From the NCBI RefSeq assembly GCF_044324785.1, contig NZ_CP172127.1: DNA of 64,000 bases. One strand, given 5' to 3'. Under the pieces are notes generated by a model. The model was not told the origin of the DNA and searched no databases. It worked only from the letters and a program-made list of their open reading frames with translations. The stretch is from Escherichia coli. GTDB lineage: Bacteria; Pseudomonadota; Gammaproteobacteria; Enterobacterales; Enterobacteriaceae. Position 1 is the first letter of the stretch; each line of letters opens with the position of its first letter. A program made the position numbers and the translations under genes. Below, piece by piece: positions 3,267 through 58,802 of the stretch.

Positions 3267-3686
3267 TTAAAGCGATTCGTTCAGCCAGCTATCGAACGGC
3301 GCTTTCGGTACTGCGCCATTAAGCATGTCGACAACCTGACCGTTTTTGAAAATCATGATCGTCGGTATACTACGAATTCCAAAGCGACTGCTCAATTCAC
3401 GTTCAGCTTCGGTATTCACTTTCACAAAGCGCACTTTACCGCTACGCTCTTGCGCGACATCTTCAAAAATTGGTGCGAAATTACGGCAGGGGCCGCACCA
3501 CGGTGCCCAGAAGTCGATCACCACTGGTAGATCATCTTTCAGCAATTTGTCGAGCGTTTCACCGGTCGCATTAATCACCTCTCCGTCAAACAAGTCGTGA
3601 CCGCAGCGTCCGCATTTTGCCGCATCTTCGATCCGATCGTCGGGAATGCGATTGATGGCCTGACAATGGGTACAAACGGTATTCAT
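3267..3686 (-). CDS. trxC: Thioredoxin 2
   Basis: 139 aa; WCGPC active site plus N-terminal paired CxxC zinc-binding motifs typical of Trx2. Confidence 0.95.
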
Positions 3687-24343: not shown

Positions 24344-26445
<2,102 letters not shown>

Positions 26446-51336: not shown

Positions 51337-53248
<1,912 letters not shown>

Positions 53249-53347
53249 CTATTTTTGTGCCATAAGGATGTTGCTGGTTGGTTGCTAATATGTGAAATAG
53301 TTAATTTCTACCAGCTGAGACGTTTTTTCGATAACAAGGGGAAGGTG

Positions 53348-54238
53348 ATGGAACTACGGCATTTACGCTATTTCGTCGCAGTGGCGCAGGCACTGAACTT
53401 TACCCGTGCGGCGGAAAAACTGCATACCTCACAGCCTTCGTTAAGCAGCCAGATCCGCGATCTTGAAAACTGTGTCGGTGTTCCGTTGCTGGTGAGGGAT
53501 AAGCGCAAAGTCGCGTTGACGGCGGCGGGAGAATGTTTTCTCCAGGACGCGCTGGCAATCCTCGAACAAGCGGAAAATGCCAAATTACGGGCGCGGAAAA
53601 TTGTTCAGGAAGACAGACAATTAACCATTGGCTTTGTGCCATCGGCGGAAGTGAATTTACTGCCAAAAGTATTACCGATGTTTCGTCTCAGACAGCCAGA
53701 TACCTTAATTGAGCTGGTGAGTTTAATCACCACGGAACAGGAAGAAAAAATTCGCCGTGGTGAACTCGACGTCGGCTTAATGCGCCATCCTGTTTATAGC
53801 CCGGAGATTGATTATCTGGAGCTTTTTGACGAACCATTAGTGGTGGTGTTACCGGTTGATCACCCTTTAGCACATGAAAAAGAGATCACTGCCGCGCAAC
53901 TGGATGGCGTGAATTTCGTCAGTACTGATCCAGCGTATTCCGGTTCGCTTGCGCCGATCGTTAAAGCGTGGTTTGCGCAAGAAAACAGCCAGCCAAATAT
54001 CGTCCAGGTGGCAACGAATATTCTGGTGACCATGAATCTGGTGGGGATGGGGCTGGGCGTCACTTTGATACCCGGTTATATGAATAATTTTAATACCGGC
54101 CAGGTGGTATTTCGACCCATTGCCGGAAATGTGCCTTCCATTGCTTTACTGATGGCGTGGAAGAAAGGGGAGATGAAGCCGGCATTACGCGATTTCATCG
54201 CCATTGTGCAGGAACGTTTGGCAAGCGTAACGGCATAA
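53348..54238 (+). CDS. hcaR: LysR-family activator of the hca operon, 296 aa
   Basis: ORF 53255..54238; ATG 53348 after AAGGTG; divergent from hcaE. Confidence 0.9.
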   Translation: MELRHLRYFVAVAQALNFTRAAEKLHTSQPSLSSQIRDLENCVGVPLLVRDKRKVALTAAGECFLQDALAILEQAENAKLRARKIVQEDRQLTIGFVPSAEVNLLPKVLPMFRLRQPDTLIELVSLITTEQEEKIRRGELDVGLMRHPVYSPEIDYLELFDEPLVVVLPVDHPLAHEKEITAAQLDGVNFVSTDPAYSGSLAPIVKAWFAQENSQPNIVQVATNILVTMNLVGMGLGVTLIPGYMNNFNTGQVVFRPIAGNVPSIALLMAWKKGEMKPALRDFIAIVQERLASVTA

Positions 54239-54397
54239 TTACGCATTATTTTTGCAACATGCGTCGCGGATCGCAGTTTTTTAGTGCTTGTGAACTGGTG
54301 TTACAGACATCGGGAAGCAGGCTCGAATATTCTTATTTTTCAACTTGCACCAACATTCGATTAACCCCAGACTAACGCCTCCTGACGGGAGGGACTC

Positions 54398-55537
54398 ATG
54401 GTTTTGCAATCCACGCGCTGGTTGGCGCTCGGCTATTTCACATACTTTTTTAGTTACGGCATTTTTCTACCTTTCTGGAGCGTCTGGCTTAAGGGGATTG
54501 GTTTAACGCCAGAAACCATCGGCCTGTTATTGGGGGCAGGTCTGGTTGCCCGTTTTCTCGGGAGCTTGCTCATCGCGCCCCGCGTCAGCGATCCTTCTCG
54601 CCTGATTTCCGCCTTGCGCGTGCTGGCACTGCTGACACTTCTCTTTGCTGTCGCATTCTGGGCGGGGGCGCACGTAGCGTGGCTGATGCTGGTGATGATT
54701 GGCTTTAACCTCTTTTTCTCACCACTGGTACCGTTGACCGATGCACTGGCGAATACGTGGCAAAAGCAGTTCCCGCTTGATTACGGCAAAGTGCGATTGT
54801 GGGGCTCGGTGGCGTTTGTCATTGGCTCGGCGCTGACGGGCAAACTGGTCAGTATGTTTGATTATCGGGTGATCCTCGCGCTGTTGACGTTGGGCGTGGC
54901 ATCCATGCTGCTCGGCTTTCTCATCCGTCCGACGATTCAGCCACAAGGGGCAAGCCGCCAGCAGGAGAGCACCGGTTGGTCTGCGTGGTTGGCGTTGGTT
55001 CGCCAGAACTGGCGCTTTCTGGCCTGCGTTTGTTTATTGCAGGGGGCGCATGCGGCCTATTACGGTTTTAGCGCCATTTACTGGCAGGCTGCTGGCTACT
55101 CGGCCTCGGCGGTGGGCTATTTGTGGTCGCTGGGCGTGGTGGCGGAAGTCATTATCTTTGCGCTGAGTAATAAACTTTTCCGCCGTTGTAGTGCACGCGA
55201 TATGCTGTTGATCTCAGCGATTTGCGGCGTAGTGCGCTGGGGCATTATGGGAGTAACTACGGCGTTGCCGTGGTTGATAGTGGTGCAAATTCTGCATTGT
55301 GGCACCTTCACGGTCTGCCACCTGGCCGCCATGCGCTATATTGCCGCTCGCCAGGGTAGCGAAGTCATCCGTTTACAGGCGGTTTACTCTGCCGTCGCGA
55401 TGGGCGGCAGTATTGCGATCATGACCGTTTTCGCCGGTTTCCTGTATCAATATCTGGGGCACGGCGTGTTCTGGGTGATGGCGCTGGTGGCGCTTCCGGC
55501 AATGTTTTTGCGCCCGAAAGTTGTTCCCTCATGCTGA
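54398..55537 (+). CDS. hcaT: MFS transporter HcaT (putative 3-phenylpropionate permease)
   Basis: 379 aa, 12-TM MFS-like. Confidence 0.9.
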   Translation: MVLQSTRWLALGYFTYFFSYGIFLPFWSVWLKGIGLTPETIGLLLGAGLVARFLGSLLIAPRVSDPSRLISALRVLALLTLLFAVAFWAGAHVAWLMLVMIGFNLFFSPLVPLTDALANTWQKQFPLDYGKVRLWGSVAFVIGSALTGKLVSMFDYRVILALLTLGVASMLLGFLIRPTIQPQGASRQQESTGWSAWLALVRQNWRFLACVCLLQGAHAAYYGFSAIYWQAAGYSASAVGYLWSLGVVAEVIIFALSNKLFRRCSARDMLLISAICGVVRWGIMGVTTALPWLIVVQILHCGTFTVCHLAAMRYIAARQGSEVIRLQAVYSAVAMGGSIAIMTVFAGFLYQYLGHGVFWVMALVALPAMFLRPKVVPSC

Positions 55538-56809
55538 TTCGAGCATTTTGCGGATCTGCTCCTGTTGATGTGTTGTCAGCGTCAAGTCCGTATAGATCAG
55601 CGGTGGTGAAAAGAGCGGTAACGGCATGGTATAAGGCGCAATAATCAGTGCCGCGCCGCGCGGAGCGCCTGTCTGCAAAAATACCTTTACCGACATATGT
55701 TTAATGTTGAGCGGCAGTAACGTTAGTTCGCGTAGCTGCTGCTCAATCTGCGCTTCTCGCTCGCTATCATTCCCGGTCAGTAGAATAATCTGTTTCTCAT
55801 GCAGGTCGTTTTCCTGCATTAGCCAGGCACCGAAAATCACCGCGACCAGACCGCTTTCCTCATCAGAAAGATGGACGCCGTATTCACTTTCAAATCCGGC
55901 CAGCGCCGCGCGGGTGGTGCGCACCAGGCGTGGATACAGGCGGGCGAACTCTTCCGGCAGGGTGTTATCAATACCGATGGCAAACAAACTGCGATTTAAC
56001 GCCTGGGCGAGGTGGGTATAAAGCTGATCGCACAACCCCTGTTCATCATAAAAACGAACATTTCCCAGCTCACGAAAGTGGTTTACTAGACGTTTGATAG
56101 ACTTACGCAGTTGTCTGTCCCGCTGATGCGCATCCCGCAGTGGATCGGGAACCCGCAACATGGAAAAAAGTAATGCCATAAACAGTGGCTCATCAGGCGG
56201 TACAGGCTGGAGCGCCCGACGCTGCCAGTGGCGTCCAATTTCCTGCGCTACCTGAAATTCAAGGCAGGATTCCGCCCAGCGACGTTGGAGCGGATTAAAC
56301 TGAGGCGTAATTCCAGCGTGGTGTTGCAGCAAACAATATTGCAGATACAGACACAGGAAATGAATATCGCGCGTTTCAAAGCGTTTTTGCAGCCGTCGGG
56401 AGCAGAGATTCACTAACGCTTGTAGATTGGTATCGTCGTAAAAGTTACGCGCAATTCCGCGTCGCTTCAGTTCACTCTTCAGGGCGGGGGTGAAATGGCT
56501 GGTAATAAATGACGGACACAGACGGAAACCACGTCGTAGCCAGTGAAATAAACACAAACGTTGGTTAAGCACTGTACCTTCAACCCGGTAGCTACCGTCA
56601 TAACCAGTAGTCAGTGTGAGTTGATGATAGCGCAGGATCTCACGTCCTGTTTCGCTGATATCAAGACTGGCAATATCATCATCCACACCATTAAGCTCGC
56701 TGAAAGTTGCCGTGGTGGCGGTCAACCCCGGCTGAAAGAGTGTCAGCAAGATCTGGCAGCGGCGCTGGGGAGCCGAAAGGACAGATGGTGGAGCAAGCGT
56801 AGGCATCAT
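55529..56809 (-). CDS. csiE: Stationary-phase-inducible protein CsiE, 426 aa
   Basis: ORF 55529..56830; ATG (cat 56807-56809) gives MMPTLAPPSV...; 3' end overlaps hcaT by 9 nt. Confidence 0.85.
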   Translation of the reverse strand: MMPTLAPPSVLSAPQRRCQILLTLFQPGLTATTATFSELNGVDDDIASLDISETGREILRYHQLTLTTGYDGSYRVEGTVLNQRLCLFHWLRRGFRLCPSFITSHFTPALKSELKRRGIARNFYDDTNLQALVNLCSRRLQKRFETRDIHFLCLYLQYCLLQHHAGITPQFNPLQRRWAESCLEFQVAQEIGRHWQRRALQPVPPDEPLFMALLFSMLRVPDPLRDAHQRDRQLRKSIKRLVNHFRELGNVRFYDEQGLCDQLYTHLAQALNRSLFAIGIDNTLPEEFARLYPRLVRTTRAALAGFESEYGVHLSDEESGLVAVIFGAWLMQENDLHEKQIILLTGNDSEREAQIEQQLRELTLLPLNIKHMSVKVFLQTGAPRGAALIIAPYTMPLPLFSPPLIYTDLTLTTHQQEQIRKMLESA

Positions 56810-56999
56810 CTGTAGATCTCCCATAAGCATAATTGATAAGAATAGCTAAAGTTTGCTCAGGGAAATGGCGAAGGGAATGCTAATCATCAGAAATGTTGGC
56901 AAGCGTCACAGAATTTTTCTCATCTTAAACTGTTCTGACCAGTGGATTAGCATGTCTTAAGGTAGTTTTGTGAATGATTATCGTGCTAGCGATCATGGG

Positions 57000-57854
57000 T
57001 TAGTTCTGCGGATTCAACGCGCTAAGGATAAAATCCACTATCTGTTCGCGATAAACATCGCCGTGACGATCGGAAAAAGCATCAATGTGTTCGCCATCCG
57101 GGATTAGGATCAACCGTTTTGGCTCTTTTGCCAGGCTATACAACTTTTCGCTGTGCTGCCATGGGATAACGTGATCAGCTTTACCGTGAATCAGTAAAAG
57201 CGGGATCGGGCTGACGCTGGCGATGTAATTTTCGCCGCTGTAACTCTCATCAAGTAAGTAGCCACTGCCGGGGATCATCTGGTTGGCGATGGTCGCATAA
57301 GAGGCAAATGTGGAGTCGAGGATCACCGCACGTATGCCTTCACGATCACCCTGACCAATAACATCCAGAATATTCGCCCCGCCAATACTCTGCCCGAACA
57401 GCACCAGCCGTTGTGGGTTTACATCACTGCGATGGCGCACCACATTGATGGCACTTTGCGTATCGTCCAGCAATCCGGCCTGGGACGGCGTGCCTTTTGA
57501 TTTACCGAATCCACGATAATCAAACATAAAAACATTGAAATTACGTTCGGGTAACCAACTGACCAGCGGCCAGTGGGCGGACATATTTCCGGCATTGCCG
57601 TGAGCATGAATAATGGTAGCAATGGCGTTATCAGCAGGGCCCGTCGAAGAAGGGATAAACCAGCCTTGCAGATGAGTACCGTCCTTAGCCGTAAATTCGA
57701 CGGATTCCGCCGACCAGGGTTCGGGACCGTAGATTTTGTCGTCAGGGTAATAGAAAAAATTGATGGCGATGCGCGGTATTAAATAAATGCAGAAGGCAAC
57801 AACAAAGAGAATAAACAGAATTTTGAGAACGCGTTTGTTCACTGGCAGCGCCAT
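57000..57854 (-). CDS. yfhR: Alpha/beta-hydrolase-fold protein YfhR, 284 aa
   Basis: ORF 57000..57881; ATG (cat 57852-57854) gives MALPVNKRVLK...; N-terminal TM anchor and nucleophile elbow GQSIGG. Confidence 0.85.
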   Translation of the reverse strand: MALPVNKRVLKILFILFVVAFCIYLIPRIAINFFYYPDDKIYGPEPWSAESVEFTAKDGTHLQGWFIPSSTGPADNAIATIIHAHGNAGNMSAHWPLVSWLPERNFNVFMFDYRGFGKSKGTPSQAGLLDDTQSAINVVRHRSDVNPQRLVLFGQSIGGANILDVIGQGDREGIRAVILDSTFASYATIANQMIPGSGYLLDESYSGENYIASVSPIPLLLIHGKADHVIPWQHSEKLYSLAKEPKRLILIPDGEHIDAFSDRHGDVYREQIVDFILSALNPQN

Positions 57855-57998
57855 AACCTTTCCTTGCGACTTCTTTATCATCCATTAATCGGGGAAAGAT
57901 GGTGGGAGAGTGGCGAAAGAAAGTAAAGCGGTGAGGAAGTATTTCGGAATAGCGCCTGAAAGGCGAGGGCGGGTGAGTGACATCACCCGCCAGAGTCA

Positions 57999-58802
57999 TT
58001 AACGCTTCAGGGCGTCGCTTAACTCGTCACGCATGTTCGCCAGCATGGCTTTAACAACGCGCGGGTTACCAGCAACGATGTTACCGGTCAGCATGTAGTT
58101 ATGACCACCGGTGAAGTCGCTGACGATGCCGCCCGCTTCACGAACCAGCAGCTCGCCTGCGGCGAAATCCCACGGACGCAGACCGATTTCAAAGAAACCG
58201 TCAACGCGACCCGCAGCAACGTAAGCCAGATCCAGCGCCGCAGAACCGGTACGACGGAAGTCAGCGCATTCGTTGAACAGTTTGCCGACGATGTTGATGT
58301 AGGTGGTGGCGTACTGTTTTGCTTTGAACGGGAAGCCGGTCGCCAGAATAGTACCGTCGAGATCGCGAGCGGTGCTGCCGCGCAGACGGTAGCCGTTCAG
58401 CTGTGCGCCCTGACCGCGAGTGGCGGTGAACAGTTCGTTACGCATAGGATCGTAAACCACAGCAACTTCAGTGCGGCCTTTGATACGAACGGCGATAGAT
58501 ACCGCGAAGTGCGGCAGACGTTTGATAAAGTTGGTAGTGCCATCCAGTGGATCGATAACCCATTGAACATCCTGATCAGTACCTTCAAGTTCACCGCTTT
58601 CTTCGGTGATGATGGTGTGCTGTGGGTAAGATTTACGAATCGTGTCGATAATCACCGCTTCGGCAGCTTTATCTACGTTGGTCACGAAGTCGTTACTGCC
58701 TTTCTGGCTCGCTTCTACAGCGTCCGGGGTTTCATAGTTTTTGGCAATTAAATTACCCGCCTTGCGCGCTGCGCGCACGGCGATGTTCAGCATCGGATGC
58801 AT
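57999..58802 (-). CDS. suhB: Inositol monophosphatase SuhB
   Basis: 267 aa; IMPase motifs DPLDGT and WDFAAG. Confidence 0.97.
   Translation of the reverse strand: MHPMLNIAVRAARKAGNLIAKNYETPDAVEASQKGSNDFVTNVDKAAEAVIIDTIRKSYPQHTIITEESGELEGTDQDVQWVIDPLDGTTNFIKRLPHFAVSIAVRIKGRTEVAVVYDPMRNELFTATRGQGAQLNGYRLRGSTARDLDGTILATGFPFKAKQYATTYINIVGKLFNECADFRRTGSAALDLAYVAAGRVDGFFEIGLRPWDFAAGELLVREAGGIVSDFTGGHNYMLTGNIVAGNPRVVKAMLANMRDELSDALKR

Follow-up and report, generated by a model that had tools for sequence, protein, structure and literature searches.

The genes hcaT and csiE of Escherichia coli converge tail to tail and share the last 9 bp of their coding sequences, an arrangement that is best regarded (with a probability of about 0.8) as an ordinary overlap of two real genes, which is already contained in the reference annotation and whose regulatory effect, if there is any, is probably small. 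In the analysed stretch of 64,000 nucleotides from contig NZ_CP172127.1, referred to here as the window, hcaT is located on the plus strand (54398..55537) and codes for an MFS transporter of 379 aa with a TGA stop at 55535-55537, and csiE is located on the minus strand (55529..56809) and codes for a PRD-domain protein of 426 aa, whose TGA stop is the complement of 55529-55531. Both genes are supported by the list of open reading frames, Pfam, NCBIfam and RefSeq. The length of 426 aa for CsiE refers to the RefSeq start at 56809, and the reading frame can be extended up to an ATG at 56830 (ORF 55529..56830, minus strand). As read directly from the sequence, the segment common to the 3' coding ends of both genes (55529-55537) is TCATGCTGA, which encodes S378-C379-stop of HcaT on the plus strand and S425-A426-stop of CsiE on the minus strand. 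The plus strand of hcaT ends with ...CCC TCA TGC TGA and the minus strand of csiE with ...GAA TCA GCA TGA, and the TGA stop of either gene is the complement of a TCA serine codon of its partner. The two genes have their codon boundaries in register, which corresponds to overlap phase 123:321. With nucleotides shared between the 3' ends and both stops verified, csiE and hcaT represent a convergent (tail-to-tail) pair of overlapping coding sequences. The 9-bp overlap with its two stop codons had been recorded in the initial annotation, which proved exact to the base and identical to the overlap in RefSeq, and reading of the sequence likewise confirms its conclusion that the two genes converge without a spacer.

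The gene names csiE and hcaT are right. CsiE matches the NCBIfam equivalog NF008597 with 777 bits (cut-off 304) over residues 1-425 of 426, and HcaT matches NF008346 with 624 bits (cut-off 259) and TIGR00902 with 706.5 bits (cut-off 698.9) over residues 1-378/379; Pfam recognizes PRD domains in CsiE and an MFS_1_like domain in HcaT. Together with these full-length equivalog matches, the conservation of the C-terminal cores up to 1-4 codons before the stops in 37 orthologous loci indicates that both reading frames are real as far as their called stops. It is hardly credible, on this background, that the overlap represents an annotation artefact, in which one of the genes would end or be functionally complete upstream of its called stop and no true dual-coding segment would exist. 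The last 1-4 residues of CsiE and HcaT are indeed unconserved, CsiE of Escherichia sp. E69 is two codons shorter, the genes merely abutting there, and the gap in Enterobacter soli is 0. However, the frames run uninterrupted to the called stops in the window as well as in every E. coli genome examined, conserved motifs reach within one codon (CsiE) and four codons (HcaT) of the stops, the curated full-length profiles cover both proteins up to their ends, and translation terminates at the first stop in frame regardless of any role of the tail residues. Misannotated stop codons were ruled out by the C-terminal alignments and the full-length profile matches. Neither gene is shorter than called, the frames being unbroken to the stops and the profiles full-length, whereas a shorter gene was what the initial annotation had named as speaking against the overlap.

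The overlap is already known, ordinary and no statistical oddity. The RefSeq annotation of E. coli K-12 MG1655 contains an identical 9-bp overlap of the same genes in the same orientation (csiE, b2535, 2665435..2666715 on the plus strand; hcaT, b2536, 2666707..2667846 on the minus strand). CsiE and HcaT of K-12 share 98.8% and 99.5% identity, respectively, with the proteins of the window, and the junctions of the two strains differ only by strain-level nucleotide changes. The same 9-bp overlap is annotated by RefSeq in the nearest isolate, AF40, which shows 99.8% identity over 601 bp. A query of 601 bp spanning the junction yielded a single match in 5424 of the 5426 complete E. coli genomes, always under features annotated as hcaT and csiE, and a segment of 71 bp with the junction at its center is at least 99% identical in 5004 of these 5424 genomes. 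In a study by Lillo and Krakauer, the number of convergent overlaps in E. coli amounted to 58, and the authors found that a model of stop-codon mutation fits the observed overlap phases, that phase 123:321 accounts for 33% of the convergent overlaps of at least 5 nt, and that only 20% of the genes in convergent overlaps have a rho-independent terminator (PMC2174442). Within 50 kb of annotated sequence around the locus, overlaps occur at two of six convergent junctions. A second case in the window is formed by tadA (plus strand, ORF 24356..24892) and mltF (minus strand, 24889..26445), whose TAA stops are interlocked in the TTAA at 24889-24892. This pair resembles csiE/hcaT in its tail-to-tail coding overlap, in the missing spacer and in its presence on the list of convergent excludons discussed below, but represents the modal 4-bp form with interlocked stops (the CTAA/TTAA/CTAG/TTAG class), whereas csiE/hcaT overlap by 9 bp in phase 123:321.

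A view on the junction in related genera was obtained by scanning species-representative genomes for CsiE, which gave 36 loci in which both frames were extended to their stops and the junction was measured. A convergent hcaT gene is present in 35 of the 36 loci, and in 32 of the 35 two-gene loci (14 named genera) no spacer separates csiE from hcaT, the junctions being overlaps of 14, 9, 6 or 4 bp or a gap of 0. Overlaps of 9 bp are found in Escherichia, the Citrobacter amalonaticus/sedlakii group, Pseudenterobacter and Intestinirhabdus, and the segment TCATGCTGA is invariant in the Escherichia loci that have the 9-bp overlap. Overlaps of 6 bp occur in Salmonella enterica subsp. arizonae and diarizonae and in three Citrobacter sp., those of 4 bp in Kosakonia, Leclercia, Pseudescherichia, Silvania, Cedecea colo and others, and those of 14 bp in most Buttiauxella; the junction is 0 bp in Enterobacter soli and Escherichia sp. 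E69. Spacers are found in three loci only, every one of which contains a REP-like or ERIC repeat: the spacers of Cedecea sulfonylureivorans (38 bp) and Dryocola boscaweniae (89 bp) harbor REP-like palindromes, and that of Buttiauxella sp. A111 (186 bp) harbors an ERIC core that agrees with a K-12 ERIC copy at 35 of 37 bases. As judged from these loci, spacers seem to arise through repeat insertion only. The one locus with csiE but without hcaT belongs to a Buttiauxella MAG (L028, 5236-7686), in which a 116-nt spacer separates csiE from the next genes, which code for proteins with APH (kinase-like) and IF-2B family domains.

The alignments show that the conserved C-terminal core of HcaT (...VFW[VI]MAL[VL]A[LV]PA..[LIV]RP[KR]V) is followed by a variable tail of 3-10 residues and that of CsiE (...QQxxIRxx[LI]E[SGC]) by a variable tail of 0-1 residue. 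The overlap therefore contains variable tails only, namely the last 1-4 residues of each protein. In Escherichia sp. E69 (L004, around 3625-3636), a 3-nt TAA insertion shortens CsiE by two residues (...KMLE*) and turns the 9-bp overlap into an exact abutment; the last two CsiE residues appear to be dispensable, because they are removed by this insertion. Extra conservation at the junction was not supported by a sliding-window comparison of six Escherichia lineages, in which its diversity (0.07-0.09) lies within the range of other hcaT segments. The abutment of the two genes thus seems to be ancient, and the exact overlap is not conserved, a combination that is the expected outcome of the loss of a spacer followed by neutral movement of the stop codons. 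The intergenic spacer between csiE and hcaT would have been lost before the sampled genera of the Enterobacteriaceae diverged; the poorly constrained C-terminal tails may then have drifted, with point mutations and small indels shifting the stops to yield overlaps of 4, 6, 9 or 14 bp or an abutment. As a separate observation, csiE evolves much faster than hcaT, with identities across the loci of 59-90% for CsiE versus 74-98% for HcaT (window 54398-56809 compared with L002-L038), and the nucleotide diversity among Escherichia lineages is higher in csiE (roughly 0.15-0.2) than in hcaT (about 0.1).

Because the junction leaves no room for an intergenic terminator, each of the two transcripts must end inside the partner gene. 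For csiE, such an end is known from Term-seq of K-12, which places it at 2666762 (plus strand) with about 1664 reads and classifies it as "primary, antisense" for csiE/hcaT; it appears only in the data sheet for LB cultures at OD 2.0 (PMC7815308, supplementary file 1). Transferred via the aligned stop codons, this coordinate corresponds to position 55482 on the minus strand of the window, which suggests a csiE 3' UTR of 47 nt (55482..55528, minus strand) running antisense inside the last hcaT codons. The csiE and hcaT mRNAs are accordingly complementary over at least 56 nt, and by this transcript geometry the pair qualifies as a convergent "excludon". An hcaT 3' end is absent from the same Term-seq study (Adams 2021; PMC7815308), and neither csiE nor hcaT is mentioned in the SMRT-Cappable-seq supplements.

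A scan for terminator-like structures, which found eight versus an expected 3.6 +/- 2.2, revealed no canonical terminator after the stop of either csiE or hcaT. The only structure adjoining the mapped csiE 3' end is a weak GC-rich palindrome at 55483..55500 (GCTGGTGGCGCTTCCGGC on the plus strand), which has a T-run on its plus-strand side only and lies within the coding part of hcaT, 35 nt upstream of the stop. The base pairs of this E. coli hairpin are kept in about half of the 37 orthologous sequences, and the folding of the junction is no more stable than that of shuffled sequence on both strands (z of +0.9 and +0.8). An intrinsic or bidirectional terminator at the junction was ruled out by the scan, these folding values and the unconserved hairpin pairs. 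Bidirectional intrinsic terminators likewise serve to end two transcripts that converge on one short region, but csiE/hcaT differ from them in having no intergenic hairpin, the only palindrome being weak, unconserved and internal to hcaT. A search of positions 53000-58000 against Rfam (E <= 1) gave no RNA family at the junction, and two sub-threshold chance matches elsewhere.

Over the 78 nt that follow the csiE stop, C makes up 36% of the bases (C/G of 1.47), and by this base composition the csiE RNA just past its stop is a plausible Rho loading site. Termination of csiE may thus proceed by loading of Rho on the untranslated C-rich RNA, and subsequent trimming by exonucleases would generate the mapped end. 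Neither gene is listed in the published data set with and without bicyclomycin, which was sampled at OD 0.5, where csiE is barely expressed (PMC7815308). The read-through RNA of hcaT is rich in G over about 140 nt, and a C-rich stretch follows only at +200 to +380.

The overlap of the transcripts raises the question of interference between the two genes. The initial annotation had concluded from the missing spacer that mutual transcriptional interference would be allowed, and the overlap at the transcript level is borne out by the Term-seq end of csiE 47 nt into hcaT in K-12 and by the inclusion of the pair in a published excludon list (PMC7815308, PMC12288877). ExcludonFinder reports csiE-hcaT as one of 165 convergent excludons that were detected in at least 50% of 58 RNA-seq samples of MG1655 (PMC12288877, NAR 2025), and csiE and hcaT are a convergent excludon in the sense of overlapping transcripts on the published data (Term-seq and the MG1655 excludome). 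The other members of this list likewise consist of mRNAs overlapping at their 3' ends and terminating inside the neighboring gene (PMC12288877). However, most of them possess an intergenic region (mean 95 nt) and overlap in their 3' UTRs only, whereas csiE and hcaT overlap in their coding sequences and are known as an excludon by transcript geometry. The mscL/arfA pair is also convergent, has complementary 3' regions and is on the excludon list; an antisense regulatory effect is reported for mscL/arfA (PMC10070815), in contrast to csiE/hcaT.

A functional convergent excludon would require more than this geometry, namely that the zero spacer is kept by selection and that transcription of the partner lowers expression through collision of RNA polymerases or cleavage of the 3' duplex by RNase III; csiE, whose induction in stationary phase is brought about by sigma-S and cAMP-CRP, would then lower hcaT, and vice versa. 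Such a function is unlikely. The place of the pair among the 165 convergent MG1655 excludons (PMC12288877) would fit it, but adds little, because overlapping coding sequences imply overlapping full-length mRNAs by definition. The detection of the csiE 3' end inside hcaT at OD 2.0 only (PMC7815308) and the very strong, about 792-fold RpoS-dependent induction of csiE (PMC2907692), for which RpoS, CRP and H-NS are listed as regulators (PMC2907692), would also agree with a stationary-phase effect on hcaT. However, the hcaT mRNA is one of the three that vary least between strains, growth stages and temperatures and serves as a reference in qPCR (PMC3110127), hcaT is absent from the main text of the RpoS transcriptome study (PMC2907692), and no p19-captured dsRNA cluster is reported at hcaT or the 3' junction (PMC7373196). 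The tight junction in 32 of 35 loci from 14 genera is compatible with selection for antisense coupling, but overlap length and phase vary by genus, REP/ERIC insertions of 38-186 bp are tolerated, and the nucleotide diversity of the junction is no outlier compared with the rest of hcaT. A strong interference effect is thus disfavored, and mutual interference is unlikely to be large. The more specific idea of a selected module, in which sigma-S-driven transcription of csiE modulates the hcaT mRNA at its 3' end (or vice versa), is quite doubtful; if true, it would link a PRD-domain stationary-phase protein to an MFS transporter affecting stationary-phase survival.

Double-stranded RNA is nevertheless known from csiE itself. 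In a study based on capture by p19, dsRNA cleaved by RNase III was abundant over csiE nt 4-667 in both growth phases (class "Full"), and antisense start sites were reported at csiE nt 701, 502 and 124 (PMC7373196). In the window, the dsRNA region corresponds to about 56143-56806 and the antisense starts to positions 56109, 56308 and 56686 on the plus strand; the sequence TGATAGACT at 56095-56103 resembles an extended -10 element for the start at nt 701. Read-through from hcaT was considered as the source of this dsRNA but is not supported, since the p19 clusters begin just downstream of the antisense start at nt 701 and stop short of the 3' junction. Antisense control of csiE, if there is any, is more likely to come from internal promoters than from hcaT.

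The description of HcaT as an aromatic-acid transporter in the initial annotation stands only in part: HcaT contributes to the uptake of 3-phenylpropionate, but growth on this compound does not need it (PMC10249474). The gene has its own promoter, in which single-nucleotide variants of the -10 region raise hcaT expression, and strains with such promoter mutations show an effect in long-term stationary-phase competition under oxidative stress (PMC10249474). Among the csiE-hcaT loci compared, hcaR and hcaE adjoin hcaT in those of Escherichia only, and neither gene was detected within roughly 2.8 kb beyond hcaT in the non-Escherichia loci (e.g., L011, 5273-7866); in Salmonella enterica subsp. arizonae, the next gene after hcaT is glyA. 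As far as can be judged from gene order, the pairing of csiE and hcaT seems to be independent of the hca cluster, and the link between hcaT and this cluster appears to be Escherichia-specific. The name hcaT thus rests largely on a gene neighborhood that is specific for Escherichia. On the hcaR side of hcaT in the window, the hcaR stop codon is overlapped by a terminator-like hairpin with a T-run at 54225-54244 on the plus strand (GCGTAACGGCATAATTACGC, then ATTATTTTTG); the gap of 159 bp between hcaR and hcaT lies downstream of that hairpin and contains the hcaT promoter. The K-12 annotation also contains a 21-codon ORF, iroK, inside the last hcaR codons.

The constant adjacency of the two genes may alternatively be thought to reflect a partnership of the proteins, e.g., with the PRD protein CsiE sensing or controlling HcaT, rather than an interplay at the RNA level. 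The presence of the pair in 35 of 36 loci, which outside of Escherichia lack hcaR or hcaE nearby (with glyA flanking hcaT in Salmonella arizonae), would agree with such a link, as would the PRD domains of CsiE, which are typical of transport-linked regulators. However, PRD regulators are known as partners of PTS components and not of MFS carriers, which counts against a CsiE-HcaT partnership. An increase in hcaT expression has an effect on competition in long-term stationary phase under oxidative stress, and csiE is induced in stationary phase, but the convergent orientation excludes co-transcription of the two genes, and the Buttiauxella MAG retains csiE without hcaT. The adjacency alone is a weak argument, the order of core genes being broadly conserved in the Enterobacteriaceae. 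A functional link between the CsiE and HcaT proteins is therefore conceivable but unsupported, and must be regarded as very improbable.

The ordinary overlap of two real genes carries little weight as a discovery, considering that it is present in the K-12 annotation, that the overlap of the transcripts has been published and that convergent overlaps are common. It has a practical side, however, as deletion or tagging of csiE or hcaT can damage the partner gene. The primer used for the original Keio deletion of csiE anneals downstream of its target, so that the 3' end of hcaT is lost together with the last transmembrane helix, and the Keio library contains both faulty and corrected csiE mutants (PMC9431181). 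The damage by this primer touches the region corresponding to window positions 55482-55537 (K-12 csiE/hcaT). Because the original Keio csiE deletion truncates hcaT, phenotypes assigned to csiE may actually be hcaT effects. New aspects are the abutment of the two genes across genera, the apparent origin of spacers via repeat insertion only, and the seeming independence of the pair from the hca cluster. The natural spacer variants in Dryocola, Cedecea and one Buttiauxella may serve, in comparison with the genera with tight junctions, as a ready comparative test of the regulatory cost or benefit of such an arrangement.
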